This document shows, piece by piece, positions 69 to 25,700 of a DNA stretch of 26,576 bases; position 1 is the first letter of the stretch, and each line of letters opens with the position of its first letter. This DNA is from a virus (Duplodnaviria > Heunggongvirae > Uroviricota > Caudoviricetes), in the IMG/VR virus record IMGVR_UViG_3300018475_000095; one strand, 5' to 3'. The translations under genes were made by a program, and so were the position numbers. The notes beneath the pieces were generated by a model, which was given only the letters and a program-made list of their open reading frames with translations, was not told where the DNA came from and did not search any database.

Positions 69-143
69 TGGCTCCCCGGGTGCGATTCGAACGGACGGCC
101 TATCGGTTAACAGCCGAGTGCTCCACCGCTGAGCTACCGAGGA
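69..143 (-). tRNA. tRNA-Asn(GTT), CCA encoded
   Basis: Minus strand TCCTCGG-TA-GCTCAGCGGTGGAGC-A-CTCGG-CTGTTAA-CCGAT-AGGCC-GTCCG-TTCGAAT-CGCAC-CCGGGGA-G-CCA. Cloverleaf with one mismatch each in the anticodon stem and T stem. Confidence 0.92.
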
Positions 144-497: not shown

Positions 498-634
498 TGG
501 TGCAGATAATCGGAGTCGAACCGATACGATATTGCTACCGAGGGATTTTTGGTCTTCAACACGAGAATTGAACTCGTAACTTTCGTTCCTATATTGAAGA
601 AGTCCTTTGCGTCTACCTATTCCGCCATATCTGC
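498..634 (-). tRNA. tRNA-Leu, predicted anticodon TAA, interrupted by a 50-nt insertion at 550-599
   Basis: GCAGATA/TATCTGC acceptor stem, A73-CCA, Leu-type D arm GGCGGAATAGGTAGACGC, long variable arm, T arm ATCGG-TTCGACT-CCGAT. Removing 550-599 gives an 87-nt tRNA with loop CTTAAAA. Confidence 0.85.
550..599 (-). ncRNA. tRNA-like mini-element nested in the tRNA-Leu anticodon loop
   Basis: CTTCAAT/GTTGAAG acceptor-like stem plus A-CCA; perfect T arm ACGAG-TTCAATT-CTCGT; AAC-GAAA-GTT mini hairpin. Confidence 0.75.
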
Positions 635-836: not shown

Positions 837-955
837 AGGCAAGGGTTGGATTTGCACCAACGACCACGGGTTTAAAAGACCTTTTTAGAGTTGCAGTTAC
901 AAATCTTTTCTACAAGATTCAATTATTACGCGCTCTCCTGCTGAGCTACCTTGCC
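837..955 (-). tRNA. tRNA-Lys(TTT)-like gene with a 47-nt insertion (882-928) in the anticodon stem
   Basis: GGCAAGG/CCTTGCC acceptor stem, D arm GCTC-AGCAGGA-GAGC, T arm GTTGG-TGCAAAT-CCAAC. Removing 882-928 gives the perfect arm CGGGT-CTTTTAA-ACCCG. No encoded CCA. Confidence 0.65.
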
Positions 956-17990: not shown

Positions 17991-18467
17991 TTATTCTCCA
18001 AACTGTAATGATAAATTTAAAATACTATAATCTGATTCCATCATAGTTCTTAATTTCTTAGATGGAATATCTATAATATGATAATTATTATCATTTAGCA
18101 TTTTTATATTCACAGATTTTTTACCATCAGATTTCATTTTTTCAATTTCTATGATAGGTACATAAACAACTTTATCTCTTTCATTGAACCATATTATAAC
18201 GCCTCTTCTCGTACCTTTAGTTGGGCATTTTTCAATAAGTTTCTTATATTGTTTCAAATTTGTGAATGGGAATGTATTTCCTTTAATTGTTTTACATTCA
18301 ATATAATATTGATATGGATAACTATAACAAATAAAGTCTGAGATATTTGATATTCCTTTCATTCCAAATCCCGGATCATAAAGTCGCTCACCATCACTAT
18401 CCGGCATAGATTGTAATCAATCTTTTAAAAATCTTGCTTCAAACTTTTTTCCTAAATTTTTAGCCAT
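17991..18467 (-). CDS. recU: RecU-like Holliday junction resolvase (158 aa) with an in-frame TGA at codon 17
   Basis: MAKNLGKKFEARFLKD[TGA 18417-18419]LQSMPDS...SDF...YIECKT. The RecU-type GxxFE motif lies upstream of the TGA, and the ATG overlaps the dnaN stop. Confidence 0.78.
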
Positions 18468-19579
18468 TATACTAATTTCACCTCTGGAATTACATTTTTA
18501 ATATTGCCCCTAGATAAAACAATAGCTTGATGATCACCAAAACTTAAAGTTAAATATTGCTCGGAACATGATTCTAAAGTTGCTTTTAGATCAGTTAAAT
18601 CAAATGTAGCTTCATATGTATCTTGTAAAGAAGTATTATTATATGAAATAATCTCTGAATTTACTTTCGCTACATCCCATACTTTTACTGCATCAGGCAT
18701 AAACTCAAATCTACTATAAGGTTTTACACTTCCATTTGAATTGTTAAATAATAACAATCTATTTATAGTTTGTAACAAAGCATTTTTATCAATATTTACA
18801 GAATATTGATAAGTATTATTTGCTCTTCCTCTAATAGCATTAACTGGTACGGAATTCAACAAAGTATCATCACATGATAGTATTGCTGTTAAGGAAATTT
18901 GAGTAGTTTCGAATTTAACTTTTGTTTGTGTTATACCACCATTAATCGTATCATAACCGAGTGTGAATAACACATCACAGTTATTAAATAGTTTAAATAA
19001 TTTTACAATTCTATCACTCAATAATATTTTTAGTGGCTCTTGTAATGAGAAACTATTTACACATGCACCAGATGTGAATGTTAAAGCTCCAAGCTCATCT
19101 ACATAGTATAATTTTTGTACTGGCTTAGATATCATACCCTTTAATAATTCTTTACTATTATAAGCTAAAATACTAGATAAAATATCGCTATTTATATTAA
19201 AGGATTTTACAGAATTTTTAATTAAAATTTCAGGTAATTCGAGTAGCTTATCATCATCAAATATTAGAGGTAACTTATATTTACCATTACCTTTTACAAT
19301 TAAAGAATTACTATCCATTGTTAACTCAATATCAGCAGTTGTTATCTGAGAAATAAGTTTCAAAAATAAATTCGCATTTACAGTTGCATGGAACTGTTCA
19401 TTAGATGCTAAAGGAAGTCTTACTGATACATAATATTCTTTATTCGTAACAGCCATTATTAATTCACTATTTATTGTTTTAAGTTCTAATGTTTCGGTTA
19501 CAATAGATAATTCATTGCTATCTACTGCACTTAAAATTTTAGAACAAATTTGTTTAAATTCATCTGTTTTAATTATCAT
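18467..19579 (-). CDS. dnaN: DNA sliding clamp, beta (DnaN-like)
   Basis: 370 aa (beta-clamp size); N-terminal helix/strand pattern, IDKNALLQTINRLLL segment and C-terminal NVIPEVKL resemble DnaN; clamp loader genes nearby. Confidence 0.75.
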   Translation of the reverse strand: MIIKTDEFKQICSKILSAVDSNELSIVTETLELKTINSELIMAVTNKEYYVSVRLPLASNEQFHATVNANLFLKLISQITTADIELTMDSNSLIVKGNGKYKLPLIFDDDKLLELPEILIKNSVKSFNINSDILSSILAYNSKELLKGMISKPVQKLYYVDELGALTFTSGACVNSFSLQEPLKILLSDRIVKLFKLFNNCDVLFTLGYDTINGGITQTKVKFETTQISLTAILSCDDTLLNSVPVNAIRGRANNTYQYSVNIDKNALLQTINRLLLFNNSNGSVKPYSRFEFMPDAVKVWDVAKVNSEIISYNNTSLQDTYEATFDLTDLKATLESCSEQYLTLSFGDHQAIVLSRGNIKNVIPEVKLV

Positions 19580-19615: not shown

Positions 19616-20637
19616 CTACCATAAGCTTTCTTTAAATAAAGTGTTACCTTTATATTCAAATTCTTTTCTCCATTTATCTAATGCATAAAGATTAAAAATC
19701 ATTCTTAAAGATCCATTATCATCTTCTAGTAAATGTTTTAACTCAATACCATGACCTATTTCTTTACACAATTCTTCGACAGCTTCTCTAACAGCTAAAG
19801 GTTGGTTAGTTATATGATCAGGTGAATCAGGATTTCTATTACTTACATATACTGTTTTTACTTTACCGTTTATAACAATGTTTAGATTACCAAAAGATGC
19901 TGATCTTATCCAGCTTGTAGAATCCGAACTCATGCTTGGATATTGCTCCATAAGTTGAACAGTTGTCATACCAAAATTATGAGTTAATGGTATTTCTCTA
20001 CCTAAATTGTTGCATACCTCATATATAAATTTCCATGTTATTTCATACCATTTAGCTTTTTCACTTACTGCTGCATCGTTAGATGGAGATATACCAATAT
20101 ATTCAATAAATGATCCATCTGAAAATCTATATTCAAGCATATTTCTTAAATATTTAAAATCTTCTCCCATATGAAAAACAGGTAATATTTTCTTCGGACA
20201 ATTTACTCTTTCGATCATATATAAATAATTTTTCCAACTATATTCTGGAGCTTCTAATAATTGCTCTTGAGTTTTTGGTTTTCCAAATTCACCTGGAATT
20301 TTATCAAGTTCTGCAAACCAATAAACTGCATCTTCAATTGAATTTATAAATTAATATATTCATCTATATCTATTTTTATACCTCTAGTCCAAGCTGAATA
20401 TGCAGAACTATCTACAACTAATTTACATGGACAACTAGGATCTTTTCTAATCTCTTCAACCCATTCTAATAATTCTTTCTTTTCATTTAACCAGGCTAAT
20501 AATTGCGGATAACCTAATTGTTTTTTAACTTCTCTAGCACTAGTTATAGTACCATCTGGTAGCTCCACATTGGATACCCCTGCACCTGCTGCAATAAGCA
20601 TATATGGCTCACCGCATTTTCTCTGTTCAAATTGCAT
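19616..20637 (-). pseudogene. TGT/DpdA-like guanine transglycosylase, split by a -1 frameshift near 20348-20350
   Basis: Adding one T joins both ORFs into ~340 aa: VVDSSAYSAW...DEYINFINSIEDAVYWFAELDKIPG...SWKNYLYMIER...LPVFHMGE...YIGIS...THNFG...SSDSTSW, matching TGT-fold motifs. May be an assembly error rather than a true pseudogene. Confidence 0.7.
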
Positions 20638-20667
20638 GTTCTATCTCCTTATAATTTCTTAATACAG

Positions 20668-21210
20668 TTAAAATAAGTCAACTTTAAGCTGTTTCTTATT
20701 TTTATTTTCAACAAAATACCAGCCAAGATCTCGCTTACCAGCTCTATGTTCATATAAATCCGGACCTAGTCCATTGTTAGCATCTAACTGTGTGCCAATA
20801 TGCGCCCAAAAAGATTCGGCAGATGTCCCTCTTACGCATTTTGCAAATATATCTCTGTCATACGTATTCATTAGATAATCTAATATCTGCTTACTTATTT
20901 TTTGACCTCTTACTGCTTCATCTACATATATATCTCCTATAACTATTACATCTTTCGTTTTAGGGACATTAAAACAACAAAAATCATATTTACCTGTAAC
21001 TGATATTACATGATGATTTCGAACATCGGGCTTAAAAAAAGCAGGATTATATGGGCCTAGTAAACTATCTTTGCCAAATTTTTTATTCTCTGACTGCCAT
21101 AACTCACTTATCCATGATACATCACAGCTAGCTTTATATGGACACCCCGAGCATTTTCTTCTTGCCTCTTCGCAATCCGATCTATCAACAGGTATTTTAC
21201 ATGTTATCAT
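20668..21210 (-). CDS. GNAT acetyltransferase with a Cys-rich N-terminus
   Basis: Motif A IYVDEAVRGQKISKQIL and AESFW; five Cys in the first 30 residues. Confidence 0.75.
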   Translation of the reverse strand: MITCKIPVDRSDCEEARRKCSGCPYKASCDVSWISELWQSENKKFGKDSLLGPYNPAFFKPDVRNHHVISVTGKYDFCCFNVPKTKDVIVIGDIYVDEAVRGQKISKQILDYLMNTYDRDIFAKCVRGTSAESFWAHIGTQLDANNGLGPDLYEHRAGKRDLGWYFVENKNKKQLKVDLF

Positions 21211-21239
21211 AGTATACTCCTTACTAATATATACAGGAA

Positions 21240-21268
21240 ATAAGAGAGCTTTATCAAAGCTCTCTTAT
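21240..21268 (-). terminator. Strong hairpin, probable terminator after the deaminase
   Basis: ATAAGAGAGCTTT-ATC-AAAGCTCTCTTAT, 13-bp stem with only a short U tail. Confidence 0.6.
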
Positions 21269-21269
21269 C

Positions 21270-21740
21270 TTAATATAATATTTTATTTTGAATTAAATTA
21301 TATTCTTCGTAAAGCTTAATACATTCTGCTCTATTAAGTTCTTCACACATCTGCTCTTTTTTTGAAGGAATACTTTCTTCAAATTCTTTATCTCTAAATC
21401 CAATAATTTCTGTATCTGTTGTGTTGCAACCATAATATACTTTACCAATATTTGCCCACAATATCGCACACATACACATCGGACAAGGATAACCTGTTGT
21501 ATAAATTTCACAACCGCTTAAATCAAATGTTTTTAATTTCTTACAAGCTTTTCTAATAGCATCTATTTCTCCATGACATGTTGGATCATTATTTGCTACT
21601 ACATGATTATGTCCTTTACTTACTACCTTTCCATCTTTAACTACTACACTACCGAATGGCCCACCATGTCCTGATCTTATTCCTTTTTGAGCTTCTTTGA
21701 TAGCTAAGTCCATAAATTTATTTGAAATACTAGTCCACAT
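21270..21740 (-). CDS. guaD: Guanine deaminase, GuaD-type (cytidine deaminase fold)
   Basis: GGPFG, NDPTCHGEIDAIR (HxE), PCPMC, and a C-terminal Tyr at residue 156 as in Bacillus-type GuaD. Confidence 0.8.
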   Translation of the reverse strand: MWTSISNKFMDLAIKEAQKGIRSGHGGPFGSVVVKDGKVVSKGHNHVVANNDPTCHGEIDAIRKACKKLKTFDLSGCEIYTTGYPCPMCMCAILWANIGKVYYGCNTTDTEIIGFRDKEFEESIPSKKEQMCEELNRAECIKLYEEYNLIQNKILY

Positions 21741-21753
21741 ATTATTCTCCAGT

Positions 21754-22416
21754 CTAATAAGTAAAATCTGGGAATATAAACTTAGAATTTCCAGCTTCTA
21801 ACCCATCTATAAGTATATTTTGTCCTGAGCAGAACTTATTATGGACTGCCATAAAATAAATCCATTCAGCGGCTTCTCTTGCAGTAGCCCATCTCTTTAA
21901 TGGCGTTAATTCCATTATTTGATCCCATAGATCTTGATCTTCTATAACACAGCTGTTTAACTCTGTTATAACTCCACCAAAGTCTAAACTATTACAAGTA
22001 GCTCCATATTTAGCTATTCTTAATGCGACATTTTTTGTATATGCCAATACCCCACCTTTACTTGCAGAATATTCTGGAAATTCAGCTCCTGTATGGGCAC
22101 TAGCACTTCCTATATTAACAATACTTTTTATCTTATCATGAATACCATATTTTTCAGTAATGTTAATAAGACCTTTTAAATTTACATTTATATCATCACC
22201 ATTTTGAACTCCAGCATTATTAACTAAAATATCAATAGTCTCTAACTCTGGAAATAAATGTTTATCTCTTATATCTCTTTTATAATGAGTATAATTATCA
22301 TTAATAATTGAACTTTCTTCTCTATCAAATCCAATTACTTCATGACCTTTTTCTAAGAATAGCAAAGCTGTTTCTCTTCCTATTCCACTAGTTGTCCCTG
22401 TTATCAATACTCTCAT
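21754..22416 (-). CDS. Short-chain dehydrogenase/reductase (SDR)
   Basis: TGTTSGIG, NNAG, Ser...YSASK catalytic motifs. Confidence 0.92.
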   Translation of the reverse strand: MRVLITGTTSGIGRETALLFLEKGHEVIGFDREESSIINDNYTHYKRDIRDKHLFPELETIDILVNNAGVQNGDDINVNLKGLINITEKYGIHDKIKSIVNIGSASAHTGAEFPEYSASKGGVLAYTKNVALRIAKYGATCNSLDFGGVITELNSCVIEDQDLWDQIMELTPLKRWATAREAAEWIYFMAVHNKFCSGQNILIDGLEAGNSKFIFPDFTY

Positions 22417-23212
22417 TTATTACCTCATCATTAGGGGTCATATATTTAATACCAATATGATTTTTATCCCAGTTTTTGCTTATTTTATAAGTAATTGGTG
22501 AGAATATAAGTTCTACTATTAATTCTATGAACATTCCTAATAATGAACAAGATAATACTGAGAACCATGTCCAACCAAAGAAATTTAAACTAACGATTGT
22601 TGCAAATACGATGTTGTCGATAAATTGACCAAGCATCGTAGACCCAGCACTCGCTACAAAGAAGCCCCAATATCTGTCACCATGTTTGTTTTGTATTTTC
22701 TTTAATAATAATCCTTGTGATAATGCATTTACAATAAGGCCAACTGCTGATGCAATCGCTGAGCCGATAATTACATACCATACATTACCCATTGTAGCAT
22801 TTAAAGCATTATTTATTTCACCAGCGTATTCATAACTTGCTGCCCATGTGCCTGGAATAACGCTAATTAACGCTAATAATCCACTTATACTAAGGGATAA
22901 TCCTAGACAGGTTAAATTTACTCTGATAGCATTTTTTGACCCAAAGTTTTTAACCATCAAATCGCCAACTAAAAATCCTATCCAGCTTAGTAATATACCA
23001 GCATCTTGTACTAACCAATAATCTCCATTTCCAAATCTTGGTAATTCAATTATTGATTTATTCGCTAATATATTCATTAATACTGTCGCTACTGTAATTA
23101 AAGCAAGTGCTAGCGCTGGTATGCTCCTTAATGTCTTTAGCCAATCCTTAAAGTTGAAAAAATCCTTTAAAATAGCCCAAAATTTCTTAAATAGATTATT
23201 TTTTACTTCCAT
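22388..23212 (-). CDS. QPTR/VUT (YhhQ-like) transporter, putative queuosine-precursor importer
   Basis: Multi-TM protein with NILANK, AGIL...F...D....FG...A and ST..GQFIDN..F motifs typical of the Vut_1/YhhQ family. Confidence 0.8.
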   Translation of the reverse strand: MEVKNNLFKKFWAILKDFFNFKDWLKTLRSIPALALALITVATVLMNILANKSIIELPRFGNGDYWLVQDAGILLSWIGFLVGDLMVKNFGSKNAIRVNLTCLGLSLSISGLLALISVIPGTWAASYEYAGEINNALNATMGNVWYVIIGSAIASAVGLIVNALSQGLLLKKIQNKHGDRYWGFFVASAGSTMLGQFIDNIVFATIVSLNFFGWTWFSVLSCSLLGMFIELIVELIFSPITYKISKNWDKNHIGIKYMTPNDEVINESIDNRDN

Positions 23213-23219
23213 TTTTACT

Positions 23220-23268
23220 CTCCTTATTTTTTATTTATTATACGGAGGATTTCGAGGTCGAACTCCGT
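23220..23268 (-). promoter_or_regulatory. Candidate preQ1-I-like riboswitch
   Basis: ACGGAG-TTCGACCTCGAAATC-CTCCGT hairpin (loop begins UUCG and ends AUC), then an A-rich tail ending in the AAGGAG RBS of the VUT gene. Confidence 0.55.
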
Positions 23269-23326: not shown

Positions 23327-24451
23327 TTAACACATCAATGGGTCAAGTATTTCATGTAATTGCTCGATAGTGCTCTCAGTTCGCTCTTCGACTAAATCAT
23401 TGAATGCTTCTTCTTTAGATTTGCCGTTTTTTACTTTCTTATTAAACTCAGATTTAACTTGTTCCATAAAATCTGTTAAATACCAACAATCTTCAATCGT
23501 GGCATCACATTTCATTGGGCATGTACATTCTGGCTTTGCAGATTCAATCATTAAATAAGACAATCTATCAGCAACTTTTTCTGCATTCTCTTTAGGACAT
23601 TCTCCTATAAGCTCATCATGAACTGCTAGCAATAATCTAAATCCTAAATTTTTCAATTCAGTATCTCTATATACAGATATCATAGCTTTTTTCGACATTG
23701 TAGCAGCTCCACCTTGAACCCTAGCATTAACGGATTGTCTTTCAGCTTGAGCTATAAATCCACTGTTATCTGAAAGTGTTATATTTTCTTTAGCAGCTTG
23801 TACTTTCAATGATTCATACTCGCGCCTGTTTCGGCATTTACTTAAAGCTTCTCGATATTTTTTAATTAGAGCATCTTCTTCTGAATAATCTTTATTGCAT
23901 CCAATAAACGGATTTATATTACACTCTTCTTGTTTTGTAGTATATTTTATGGTGTATTTTGGGAGTAAAATATCCGGTAATCTTCTTCTTCTACCCCATA
24001 GATCCTCTACATATCCATTTTTTCGTGCATCCGATATTGTTTTATCAACCCAAGTCTTTACTTTAGGAAATCCATCGAAAAATTTGTCGATAATAGCTTG
24101 AGCTTCTTCAACAGTTTGATCAATCTGCTCAGCAACAGATGCTGCTCCACGTTGATACATAATACCAAGCACAATACTCTTACAAAAACCTCTTCGTTTC
24201 TTACCTTCAGGATTAGCAGTACCGTCTTGCCTAAATTCCATATTATCCCAATAATCGTTATTGTAAACTTTAGAAGCTACAGTTGCATATAAATCTTGCT
24301 TATTCATATACGCTTGCAGCATGTTTTCATCTCCAGAATAATGAGCTAGAAGGCGAGGCTCCTGCTGGGAAAAATCCGCACCGACCATCGTATACCCATC
24401 AGTAGCTTTGAACAGCATTCTTATTTCTTTGTTGTGACTTGGTATGTTTTG
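23327..24451 (-). CDS. polA: Family A DNA polymerase, exon 2
   Basis: QNIP, motif A ADFSQQEPR, motif B RGFCKSIVLGIMY, NARVQG, motif C VHDE. Confidence 0.93.
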   Translation of the reverse strand, partial: QNIPSHNKEIRMLFKATDGYTMVGADFSQQEPRLLAHYSGDENMLQAYMNKQDLYATVASKVYNNDYWDNMEFRQDGTANPEGKKRRGFCKSIVLGIMYQRGAASVAEQIDQTVEEAQAIIDKFFDGFPKVKTWVDKTISDARKNGYVEDLWGRRRRLPDILLPKYTIKYTTKQEECNINPFIGCNKDYSEEDALIKKYREALSKCRNRREYESLKVQAAKENITLSDNSGFIAQAERQSVNARVQGGAATMSKKAMISVYRDTELKNLGFRLLLAVHDELIGECPKENAEKVADRLSYLMIESAKPECTCPMKCDATIEDCWYLTDFMEQVKSEFNKKVKNGKSKEEAFNDLVEERTESTIEQLHEILDPLMC

Positions 24452-25700
24452 CAATATGTTATCGTCAAGCTCTTTATCTTGACCTCTATAGTTATTTGAT
24501 ATTTTACTATAGTTCAGACTATATCTTTAACTTTAAATAATTCTCATACTTTCTTTGTAATTTAAAACAATCATCTATCGAATATATCCAATCTAAAAAT
24601 TTTTTAGCTGTATTTCCATTTAAGCTTAAGTAAGGATATAATTTATTGTTTCTCTGTGTATAGTTTATTTTAATATTTAAATTTACATGATAATTTATAA
24701 TATCGATCAGGTGTTTTATAAATATCTCTGATGCAGTGCAAAGTGAGCAGCAATAGCGCTTTTTTGATATATATCCATCTCCATCAAAACACCCAAGCAA
24801 ATATGCTTTAATACAATTTTCTGATGGAAAATTACACCTAGGATTAACTGAAAAAGTTTTTGGACCATCTAATAAGTTAAAATTATCTATCAAAAACTTA
24901 TTTAACCCATTCGCTGATAATCTAAGGGAATATGTTTTTCCATATTTCTTTATATCGAAGGATGAATTATAATAAATCTTAATAGCTGTTAGTAAATCTA
25001 ACTCACTCTCCCCTGAAAGCCTAAGTTCTATAGCATTTGAATTTTTTGGTATGTATCCATCAGTAGCAGTTAATCCTACTAGATAATAGAGATGTGGATC
25101 ACTTAAATCATAAAGTTTAGAAGTATCTAGTTGATGCTTAAATTTTTTGATAAGTTTATATTTGCTACGCCTCCAATCTAATATACTCTCAGATATATTA
25201 TTTTCAACAGCTAATTGATGTATACTTTTGTTGGTATTAACCCAATTATCAATTAACCATTGCTTATCAATATCAGGTCGAATGCGTCTTGATAGATCTT
25301 CAATACCTTTTCTAGGACTAATTCTAGGGTATTTTAAATTAAAATTTATTAGTAATTTATTTAACTTATAAATCGATATATTTAAATGTTTACATAAATC
25401 TTTTTTACATCTAAATTTTAATATTAAATTTTGTATATCTTTTTTATTTAACATTTGATGCCTCCAATAAATTTAGCATCATATTTTATATAGTAAGTAT
25501 GAATTTTTTGAATTATTTAAAGTTATCGCGCGCTCGTGGATGAATTATTGATTTTATCTCTCATCATCTAGTCGTTGCTCCTTCAAAGGAATTTCTCCTA
25601 AGCTTGGATCAGGATTGTGGTAATAATTTATCAAACCATGTTCCCTGAGTTCACGCGAAGTTTACCTTACAATCACTTGCAAGGGCCTCCATATATTTTA
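24452..25700 (-). mobile_element. Group I intron (1249 nt, probably subgroup IA) in polA
   Basis: Splicing CCAAACCTT|...ATTG|CAAAAC restores SSDPNL-QNIP. The 5' exon U pairs with G in P1 (GGAGG guide) and the intron ends in G. R element GCAACGACTA (25569-25578), S element AAGATATAGTC (24517-24527), 13-bp P8 (25513-25525/24528-24540). Confidence 0.93.
24519..25454 (-). CDS. Intron-encoded LAGLIDADG homing endonuclease
   Basis: Two motifs, YYLVGLTATDGYI and AYLLGCFDGDGYI; N-terminal HTH-like segments; own GGAGG RBS; located in the P8 loop. Confidence 0.88.
   Translation of the reverse strand: MLNKKDIQNLILKFRCKKDLCKHLNISIYKLNKLLINFNLKYPRISPRKGIEDLSRRIRPDIDKQWLIDNWVNTNKSIHQLAVENNISESILDWRRSKYKLIKKFKHQLDTSKLYDLSDPHLYYLVGLTATDGYIPKNSNAIELRLSGESELDLLTAIKIYYNSSFDIKKYGKTYSLRLSANGLNKFLIDNFNLLDGPKTFSVNPRCNFPSENCIKAYLLGCFDGDGYISKKRYCCSLCTASEIFIKHLIDIINYHVNLNIKINYTQRNNKLYPYLSLNGNTAKKFLDWIYSIDDCFKLQRKYENYLKLKI

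Follow-up and report, generated by a model that had tools for sequence, protein, structure and literature searches.

The DpdA1 system of Streptococcus phage Dp-1 comprises FolE, QueD, QueE, QueC, QueF-L, QueT, and DpdA, and about 1.7% of the G in its DNA is replaced by dPreQ1 (PMC6884629). Methyl- and formyl-dPreQ1 also exist (bioRxiv 2023.04.13.536721), and PaMx11 gp48, a GNAT, acetylates aminomethyl-dU in DNA (PMC8989533). Here we describe a locus of a gut Caudoviricetes phage (IMG/VR record IMGVR_UViG_3300018475_000095) that resembles the Dp-1 system in its transglycosylase and departs from it in several other genes. "The window" below denotes the whole 26,576-nucleotide stretch of DNA analyzed, which is part of a genome of ~154 kb.

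Locus layout and the transglycosylase

The module sits between polA, which ends at position 23327, and the gene of a phage-encoded beta clamp, with all genes on the minus strand (Table 1). The gene set listed by a first-pass annotation made from the sequence alone was borne out by Pfam, PHROG, and PDB or fold matches, and all five genes of the module are real. The tRNA-Asn (GUU) it reported was confirmed too. That annotation saw no folE, queD, queE, or queC in the window, and our own by-eye reading of the window translations likewise recognized no ORF for these genes or for queF. A promoter and terminator scan of the window gave nothing above chance.

Table 1. Positions of the features in the window
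Feature	Position	Strand	Evidence or remark
tRNA-Asn(GTT)	69-143		confirmed
Beta sliding clamp, phage-encoded	18467..19579	-	PF00712, phrog_947
DpdA1, TGT-like	19616..20637	-	two pieces, 20344-20637 and 19616-20347; both match phrog_887
GNAT	20668..21210	-	weak Pfam, clear GNAT fold
Hairpin, perfect, 14-15 bp	21240..21268	-	z=-3.26
GuaD-type CDA-fold deaminase	21270..21740	-	best PDB match 1wkq, E=4.5e-33
SDR	21754..22416	-	adh_short 3e-21; overlaps QPTR stop
QPTR/VUT	22388..23212	-	PF02592 E=6e-22; TIGR00697 5e-11
preQ1-I-type riboswitch variant (predicted)	23222..23268	-	pattern and covariation; directly before QPTR gene

The reading frame of dpdA is broken by one C missing after position 20352 and encodes 340 aa when that C is restored. 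The missing C is present in two 99.98%-identical assemblies and in four runs, some of which may be the source sample of the window itself, and the intact protein (P0002) was found on 25 contigs. In the population, then, dpdA is whole, and an assembly error most likely accounts for the break in the window; a programmed frameshift or a pseudogene was rejected, as there is no slippery site and the frame is intact in the six other assemblies or runs.

The structure search that the first-pass annotation had proposed for the joined protein returned a TGT fold (model pLDDT, 93.5), and the top 50 Foldseek rows were all TGT, arcTGT, or bDpdA. By sequence the protein is kin to the DpdAs of 9g, CAjan, and Dp-1, the last being its best phage match (42% identity, versus 31% to that of CAjan). 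The catalytic DS[GS]A[YF]S motif is present in 116 of the 117 homologs and HxFG in all of them, D76, H220, and D239 are invariant, and both catalytic Asp motifs are in place. The zinc motif of tRNA TGTs, CxCxxC, turned out to be absent from all 117 homologs, neither dpdA piece matched NCBIfam tgt, and the protein ends in a clamp-type tail, FKESLW.

DpdA very probably modifies DNA with a 7-deazaguanine, as Dp-1 DNA, from the phage with its best match, carries dPreQ1 (PMC6884629), the DpdA1 kinship, the lack of the TGT zinc motif, and the clamp tail all favoring DNA over tRNA as the target. The opposite possibility, a tRNA target such as the phage tRNA-Asn, was raised in the first-pass annotation; the module would then be an auxiliary queuosine pathway. 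The family is labeled "queuine tRNA-ribosyltransferase" in PHROG and GenBank and the window does encode tRNA-Asn(GTT), but in addition to the features just named, the closest characterized relatives (Dp-1 and CAjan) are DNA enzymes, the gene lies between polA and the clamp gene, and hosts with the same cassette already possess tgt and queA, which makes a tRNA target highly improbable. As to the inserted base, it is likely preQ1 or derived from preQ1, because the leader of the module is of the preQ1-I type and relatives with de novo genes (L030 and L036) carry a QueF of the QueF_N+QueF type. Counting against preQ1 insertion is the fact that the DpdAs tested so far all insert preQ0 (bioRxiv 2023.04.13.536721).

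The riboswitch-QPTR-SDR cassette

The leader of the QPTR gene consists of a 6-bp P1, UUCG, a long loop ending in C, and an A-rich tail that runs into the Shine-Dalgarno sequence of the QPTR gene, an arrangement suggesting that it likely acts by translational control. In 18 sequences P1 was 96% paired, with 29 compensatory cells, a result equaled in none of 500 shuffles. The motif precedes QPTR in 15/16 clade loci. The preQ1-I pattern occurs once in the window, against 1 match in 200 shuffles. With Rfam RF00522 the leader stayed below threshold, without a match even at an E of ≤5; it was aligned with a member that Rfam does call (L064). The loop is short and looks canonical in some relatives, L030 among them, and in L036 the motif stands before queF. 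The leader shows these preQ1-I features: a short P1, a loop that opens with UUCG, a C preceding the 3' strand of P1, an A-rich tail, and a place upstream of Q genes. What the first-pass annotation called a riboswitch-like leader is, by pattern and covariation, a preQ1-I-type riboswitch variant, though below the Rfam score, and is predicted to bind preQ1.

The transporter scored 79 bits for the Vut_1 domain (cut-off, 27.2) and 42.8 for TIGR00697, just below the cut-off of 50.95. The gene overlapping its stop encodes a classical NAD-type SDR with TGxxxGxG, an invariant Asp31, and Ser/YxxxK. The same SDR directly follows QPTR in 78 of the 80 nearest bacterial QPTR homologs. Conversely, among the 80 best bacterial SDR homologs (62 to 71% identity), the SDR follows QPTR in 52 and a nucleoside hydrolase plus ECF-S in 21, and Rfam called preQ1-I at 7 of the 11 loci scanned. 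The family is present in >500 stretches of gut bacterial genomes.

The slot taken by these bacterial homologs is that of QueL, third in an operon that has a preQ1 riboswitch, queK, and an ECF gene ahead of it; their genomes contain tgt and queA and no de novo path. The last gene of the same operon is a true QueL in L250 and L252 (the latter matching 6P78 at E=2e-80) and the SDR in L249. All nine SDR genomes tested had tgt and queA, no QueL was found in the eight SDR genomes searched for it, and neither queC nor queF was found in those searched for them. The SDR may work like QueL but is not a QueL, its fold being that of a classical SDR and not radical SAM. Mutual exclusion of the two was not significant in either sample: of 301 Lachnospiraceae, 34 had QueL, 11 had the SDR, and none had both (P = 0.26), and the overlap was zero in the second sample too (P = 0.92).

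The cassette is thus common to phage and gut bacteria, in which gene order puts the SDR in QueL's slot. The SDR very likely serves preQ1 salvage; we lean, with less assurance, toward its converting queuine to preQ1 specifically, as a candidate second queuine lyase. A literature search, with most subscription papers outside its reach, found no paper on an SDR queuine lyase. The first-pass annotation had counted the SDR among the tailoring enzymes, a role that is not supported: the protein has no clamp tail (nor has QPTR), and its gene in gut bacteria belongs to salvage, is regulated by preQ1, and sits where QueL would. The proposed import of a precursor by QPTR and its exchange into DNA by DpdA is supported.

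It is possible, though rather unlikely, that the SDR handles another imported precursor, for example by reducing preQ0 or a 7-formyl/hydroxymethyl-deazaguanine or by detoxifying an analogue, and that the inserted base is preQ0. E. coli YhhQ does transport preQ0 (PMC6884629), which is also what the tested DpdAs insert (bioRxiv 2023.04.13.536721); moreover, an adjacent QueK is missing from most bacterial QPTR-SDR pairs, and QueF is missing from SDR hosts too. Against this, the 21/80 loci place the SDR exactly where QueL stands, after a hydrolase that resembles QueK and would yield queuine. The invariant Asp31 also indicates NAD(H), whereas QueF uses NADPH, and we know of no example of nitrile reduction by an SDR.

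Some relatives carry a QPTR-amidase cassette in place of QPTR-SDR. It occurs in sister phages as well as in QueC- and QueF-less bacteria of the gut and rumen, and since L292 has both cassettes, they are not simple substitutes. Rfam made no call on the leaders of the QPTR-amidase loci, where the preQ1-I motif is present by pattern. Perhaps the amidase recycles acyl-preQ1; its identification as GatA with a GatC partner was rejected, the small neighbor being a SemiSWEET-like membrane protein and the gatA score falling under the cut-off.

The deaminase has the HxE and PCxxC zinc motifs and a C-terminal Tyr and is closest to B. subtilis GuaD (1wkq), but with plant guanosine deaminases close behind (7e-30), its exact substrate is not fixed by sequence. 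The first-pass annotation gave GuaD a part in the pathway, the removal of competing or released guanine. With guaD present in only 2/18 clade loci, though directly after dpdA in two other phages (L031 and L317), GuaD appears to be an optional accessory and is weak as a core part.

The GNAT, its predicted clamp tail, and the proposed base

The hairpin between guaD and the GNAT gene received no terminator call, and its U-tract is poor; it is followed, ahead of GNAT, by a TG-TATA-like sequence, and comparable hairpins and TGTATA motifs were seen by eye before GNAT in several relatives. It is possibly the end of the salvage transcript and probably splits the module into two transcription units, as first noted, but the further suggestion that the two are independent does not hold, because the QPTR cassette is present in 16/17 loci with GNAT and DpdA. 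The module is made up of a supply half, riboswitch-QPTR-SDR, and a writing half, GNAT-DpdA.

Members of the GNAT family turned up in phage-like loci only, with none found in bacterial genomes. The co-occurrence check across relatives put it beside DpdA in 17/17 loci and in none of the eight clamp loci lacking DpdA; the GNAT tracks one DpdA subclade (at least 59% identity), and the linkage may reflect shared descent. In L317, a locus with queC/D/E/folE but no QueF, the predicted base is preQ0, which offers no amine, and GNAT is absent. An N-terminal C-x6-C-x2-C-x5-C motif is present in 102/116 GNAT homologs; we take its spacing to be that of the DNA-binding Fe-S loop of endonuclease III, a likeness for which an HMM search gave no support.

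The GNAT ends in KQLKVDLF. A terminal L[FW] is found in 106/116 homologs of GNAT and 111/117 of DpdA, the two having a K-x-[DE]-L-[FW] tail in common, while QPTR, SDR, GuaD, and amidase have no such tail. In the model, residues 173 to 180 of the GNAT dock in the peptide pocket of the phage clamp (0.70 versus 0.01 for the best control), with the runs agreeing in ≥70% of contacts and a partner pLDDT of 47 to 54. The passing mark was attained by 58 of 80 solved pairs and by 2 of 110 mismatched ones. Clamp-peptide docking is a textbook interface, which a model can reproduce from its training. The GNAT is predicted to dock on the clamp, and so, judging from its tail, is DpdA; the tail would place the GNAT at the fork and does not tell which base it touches. 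In related phages, comparable tails are found at the C termini of adenine methylases, DUF488, and a Mom protein; the Mom and adenine methylase genes are located within the same modification island or close to it. In a sister lineage the tail also picks out a glycosyltransferase-like gene adjacent to DpdA.

We consider it probable that the GNAT acts on DNA. Whether it acylates dPreQ1, as a candidate dPreQ1 N-acetyltransferase, stands at about even chances, and the same balance applies to N-acetyl-dPreQ1 in phage DNA, which is nevertheless our best reading. The GNAT was proposed as a tailoring enzyme in the first-pass annotation and is still the candidate for that role. It is neither DpdM nor DpdN, having a GNAT fold and not that of DpdM or of a PurN-like formyltransferase. 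A literature search, again with most subscription papers outside it, turned up nothing on acetyl-preQ1 DNA.

In an alternative reading, the salvage cassette and DpdA make plain dPreQ1 and the GNAT is an independent, clamp-riding Mom-like modifier of adenine or cytosine amines that shares the island. Mom itself has a GNAT fold, binds acetyl-CoA and iron, and modifies adenine (PMC7261163). The four-Cys motif could hold a metal or an Fe-S cluster, and true Mom and adenine methylases of relatives have a similar tail, some of them being encoded between GNAT and DpdA (L032, L287, and L298). We regard this as doubtful: nine GNAT family members gave no match to Pfam Mom and the PHROG search gave no Mom-like match, whereas the L298 protein matches Pfam Mom at 6e-27, and identity with Mom was rejected for want of an HMM match. 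Mom is also absent from the fold-match lists, to which we attach no weight. Nor was the GNAT seen without DpdA (0 of 8 DpdA-less loci) or in L317, and for a GNAT the exocyclic amine of a purine is a much harder substrate than a primary alkylamine.

Still less probable is acetylation of free preQ1 before insertion or of a protein, be it DpdA, the clamp, or one of host defense, with plain dPreQ1 or a preacetylated base in the DNA. The top fold matches do include protein N-terminal and small-molecule acetyltransferases, the fold being silent on the substrate, but the predicted free-base enzymes (SDR, GuaD, and amidase) have no clamp tail, while the GNAT keeps it in ~90% of homologs, and the endonuclease III-like Cys spacing may also speak for DNA.

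Proposed pathway and comparison with known systems

With N-acetyl-dPreQ1 as the end product, the module would be, at roughly even odds, a two-part DNA anti-restriction system; its supply part is seen as genes and regulation with putative chemistry, its writing part as a family with putative activity. A preQ1-sensing riboswitch would control QPTR, which would import a 7-deazaguanine, most likely queuine. The SDR would then turn queuine into preQ1, the conversion that QueL carries out in C. difficile, but by a nonradical route in which the allylic alcohol of the cyclopentenediol is oxidized and beta-elimination then releases the amine. In newly made phage DNA, DpdA1 would put preQ1 in the place of guanine. 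Using acetyl-CoA, the GNAT would acetylate the free aminomethyl group to give 7-(acetamidomethyl)-7-deazaguanine in DNA. Because both enzymes are predicted to ride the clamp by the same C-terminal tail, they would work on nascent DNA. GuaD, where present, would remove the released guanine, which would compete with preQ1.

If so, the GNAT is predicted to make a ninth, undescribed 7-deazaguanine DNA base, and the SDR would be a nonradical QueL replacement that fills a gap in gut bacterial queuine salvage. A phage without QueF that is fed by preQ1 salvage bears on direct preQ1 insertion by DpdA, which would then be possible. The shared tail would be a simple marker for further fork-coupled DNA-modifying enzymes in this phage group. 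More tentatively, gut phages may write N-acetyl-preQ1 by clamp-docked DpdA and GNAT, with supply from a queuine lyase of the SDR type that hundreds of gut bacteria have as well. QPTR-amidase, whose amidase may deacylate preQ1, would recover preQ1 from the N-acyl-preQ1 of phage DNA turnover. Phages would in that case drive a loop in the queuine economy of the gut, and queuine is a micronutrient for the animal host too.

The locus is like that of Dp-1 in its DpdA, in having a precursor transporter in the cluster, and in its position just upstream of the clamp gene, and differs in the lack of de novo genes in the window, in QPTR in place of QueT, in riboswitch control, and in the added SDR, GuaD, and GNAT. 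As with DpdM (methyl-dPreQ1) and DpdN (formyl-dPreQ1) of Cui et al., an extra enzyme beside DpdA is predicted to cap the preQ1 amine; here it is a GNAT, and the eight derivatives that bioRxiv 2023.04.13.536721 lists include no acetyl product, the words "acetyl" and "GNAT" being absent from that paper. The C. difficile preQ1-I riboswitch-queK-qrtT-queL operon (PMC11477304) has the same riboswitch class, and its third slot is filled by bacterial SDR homologs; the fold there is radical SAM versus SDR here, and the phage pairs SDR with QPTR in a locus that lacks QueK. The Mom of phage Mu (PMC7261163) is likewise a GNAT fold acting on phage DNA, and a Mom of related phages has a similar tail, but Mom modifies adenine and needs no DpdA, and our GNAT does not match the Mom HMM. 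A parallel in reaction, with no sequence kinship seen, is gp48 of Pseudomonas phage PaMx11, which converts 5-aminomethyl-dU to 5-acetylaminomethyl-dU (PMC8989533): it too is a GNAT working on the aminomethyl arm of a DNA base after replication, on a pyrimidine of the hmdU pathway.

The DpdA gene and its surroundings

The module genes proposed by the first-pass annotation are real, and all five lie on the minus strand, with polA on one side and the phage beta clamp on the other, within the block of replication genes of a ~154-kb phage from animal feces metagenomes. The earlier reading holds in part: we regard the module as a DpdA system that probably includes a new tailoring step, the chemistry of which is predicted. 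The TGT-like gene is broken in the window by a single missing C after position 20352; this C is present in contigs of four runs and in two assemblies that match the window at 99.98% identity, and the intact 340-aa protein (P0002) was found on 25 contigs. An assembly error is the most likely cause of the break.

From its sequence, the transglycosylase is classed as a DpdA1. The expectation that the joined protein has a TGT fold was borne out, as its predicted structure (pLDDT 93.5) resembles those of TGT and bDpdA. Its top phage match (42-43%) is the DpdA of Streptococcus phage Dp-1, the DNA of which contains dPreQ1 (PMC6884629), followed by those of a Bacillus phage, MS1, and then the CAjan/9g group. 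The HxFG and both catalytic Asp motifs are conserved among the 117 homologs, and the zinc motif of tRNA TGTs was found in none of them (0/117). Given this kinship, fold, and motif content, tRNA, earlier raised as a possible target, is unlikely.

Other features were seen in the window and in related phages (coordinates in the table). The window polA is interrupted by a LAGLIDADG endonuclease gene, which probably sits in an intron; Rfam gave no intron match. Two over-long Rfam tRNA matches not called by ARAGORN are possibly tRNAs with insertions. Dp-1-like gut phages (the L004 group) carry two adjoining DpdA-like genes, each with DSGAYSAW, and GuaD 4 kb downstream.

The probable precursor salvage cassette

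The leader before the transporter gene (QPTR) was not matched in an Rfam search. Its elements are a stem of 6 bp, UUCG, a loop with C as its last base, and an A-rich tail reaching the Shine-Dalgarno sequence, and the motif lies upstream of QPTR in 15 of 16 loci and upstream of queF in L036. Across 18 copies from phages and bacteria, the stem is 96% paired and four of its pairs show compensatory changes (controls: 0/500 shuffles; slid, 33-56%). By these features the leader appears to be a long-loop switch of the preQ1-I type, which suggests that the cassette ultimately yields preQ1. One phage has a tandem pair of preQ1-I-like aptamers upstream of QPTR.

The SDR, previously taken for a base-tailoring enzyme, is probably a new salvage enzyme, a candidate queuine lyase of predicted chemistry. 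Gut bacterial genomes contain more than 500 stretches homologous to it, and the phage SDR groups with these in a tree (96/92). In the 80 best of them, the SDR gene comes after QPTR in 52 cases and after a nucleoside hydrolase plus an ECF S-component in 21, often under an Rfam preQ1-I switch; of the 80 QPTRs closest to that of the phage, 78 are directly followed by SDR. The C. difficile operon runs riboswitch-queK-qrtT-queL (PMC11477304), and in bacterial operons of the riboswitch-queK-ECF type the last gene is QueL in L250 and L252 (the latter matching PDB 6P78, E=2e-80) and SDR in L249, where it occupies QueL's place. Both tgt and queA are present in 9/9 SDR genomes tested; a search of eight of these nine gave no QueL, and those genomes that were searched for queC and queF yielded neither. 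Among 301 Lachnospiraceae, 34 have QueL, 11 SDR, and 0 both, an exclusivity that is not significant. The Asp after strand 2 is invariant and Ser/YxxxK intact, which is compatible with NAD+-dependent oxidation: we infer that the SDR would oxidise queuine's allylic alcohol with NAD+, and that elimination would then free preQ1. Three phages have a GDSL/SGNH hydrolase between QPTR and SDR, which may strip the imported base of an acyl or ester group.

In three sister phages, QPTR lies under a preQ1-I-like motif and is paired with an amidase-signature enzyme (PF01425), and one of them (L292) holds both this and the QPTR-SDR cassette. Close bacterial amidase homologs (L144-L153) follow QPTR in 10/10 cases, most with a preQ1-I-like motif upstream; the carriers include Treponema, Anaeroplasma, and Lachnospiraceae. 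In the five amidase genomes tested, queA was present and neither queC nor queF was found. In the absence of QueC, hydrolysis of ADG would lead nowhere, and N-acyl-preQ1 therefore fits better as the substrate; speculatively, the amidase is a candidate N-acyl-preQ1 deacylase, an activity that would fit an acylating GNAT.

Conservation and organization of the module

The expected co-occurrence of the module genes in relatives is supported by the 18 clade loci to which DpdA or GNAT led: GNAT and DpdA occur together in 17, QPTR in 16, SDR in 14, the amidase in 3, and GuaD in 2. In L030, queF, queC, queD, queE, and folE precede QPTR-amidase-GNAT-DpdA, adding the de novo path, which L036 has without QPTR or GNAT. 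In a second set, 38 loci located by way of the clamp and in part from the same phages, GNAT is present in 8, each time with DpdA, and in 0 of 8 DpdA-less loci having enough flank; the family was not found in the bacterial genomes searched. GNAT follows one DpdA subclade, and shared descent thus adds to the linkage.

The gene caller assigned alternative codes to L035 (TAG=Q) and L036 (TGA=W). A sister lineage (L295-L297, L318, L321-L323, L328-L330) has the order QPTR-DpdA-SDR-glycosyltransferase-like gene (~295 aa, weak phrog_2456); in most of these loci the last product ends in an LF clamp-type tail and the SDR forms a separate clade without the usual YxxxK motif. A sugar-bearing deazaguanine is possible there. 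An 80- to 95-aa SemiSWEET-like membrane protein, the sole transporter-like gene product in L034, recurs in the module and is possibly a third precursor transporter.

The deaminase is nearest to B. subtilis GuaD. Its proposed removal of guanine fits the position of guaD directly 3' of dpdA in L031 and L317, where released guanine would be cleared, but at 2/18 loci it is rare and optional. The hairpin between guaD and GNAT is real, and a TG-TATA-like sequence precedes GNAT in several relatives; together they suggest that GNAT-dpdA-clamp is transcribed separately from the preQ1-repressed cassette. The earlier reading that the hairpin splits the module is thus retained as probable, but not the independence of its halves, as separate transcription is sensible for a single pathway.

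Coordinates of features in the window and in related phage loci (L-numbers)
Locus	Position	Feature
Window	24455-25697	interrupted polA
Window	24519-25454	LAGLIDADG endonuclease
Window	501-634	over-long tRNA match
Window	837-955	over-long tRNA match
L004	9773-11620	paired DpdA-like genes
L028	6615-6760	tandem aptamers
L021	8572-9267	GDSL/SGNH hydrolase
L032	5114-5734	GDSL/SGNH hydrolase
L291	7330-7941	GDSL/SGNH hydrolase
L028	7656-9110	QPTR-amidase
L030	7654-9123	QPTR-amidase
L292	4268-5722	QPTR-amidase
L295	7113-9936	QPTR-DpdA-SDR-glycosyltransferase-like
L323	5006-7526	QPTR-DpdA-SDR-glycosyltransferase-like
L018	11466-11720	SemiSWEET-like
L030	9192-9470	SemiSWEET-like
L034	9139-9372	SemiSWEET-like
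L298	11124-11972	Mom-family gene
L019	13110	N6-methylase-like or MT-A70-like
L032	9516-10007	N6-methylase-like or MT-A70-like
L288	7217-7642	N6-methylase-like or MT-A70-like
L292	8576-9007	N6-methylase-like or MT-A70-like
L287	8543-9088	N6-methylase-like or MT-A70-like

The clamp tail and the predicted acetyltransferase substrate

An L[FW] C terminus, mostly K-x-[DE]-L-[FW], is present in 111/117 DpdAs and 106/116 GNATs. In eight loci it was found in 20 of 181 ORFs, 15 of them GNAT or DpdA; small adenine methylases and DUF488 proteins are among the other proteins with this tail in those loci and in the loci found by the clamp. The tail is absent from QPTR, GuaD, the amidase, and the SDR, which for the last again speaks against base tailoring. 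In the structure model, GNAT residues 173-180 sit in the clamp pocket (clamp residues 168-172, 245-252, and 363-370), the runs agreeing in at least 70% of contacts with a partner pLDDT of 47-54. The docking score was 0.70 (best control, 0.01), with a mark reached by 58/80 solved and 2/110 mismatched pairs, although the interface is of a textbook type and the pass may come from likeness. Tail and model together predict that the GNAT binds the clamp and would work at the replication fork.

In DpdA-less relatives, a tailed (LF) Mom-family gene directly follows the clamp and may provide an alternative modification within the same phage group. Small N6-methylase-like (141-163 aa) or MT-A70-like genes are inserted beside GNAT/DpdA in five loci, and the N6-methylase-like proteins of L032, L288, and L292 carry the tail.

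The acetyltransferase has a predicted GNAT fold, and a C-x6-C-x2-C-x5-C motif is kept in 102/116 homologs. The amine of preQ1 would be the only primary alkylamine that DpdA places in DNA, and methyl- and formyl-dPreQ1 are known, the acetyl form not being listed (bioRxiv 2023.04.13.536721). With the precedent of PaMx11 gp48, these points make N-acetyl-dPreQ1 our best guess for the product, a Mom-like or protein target being about equally probable. PaMx11 gp48, likewise a GNAT, adds an acetyl group to an aminomethyl-bearing DNA base (PMC8989533).
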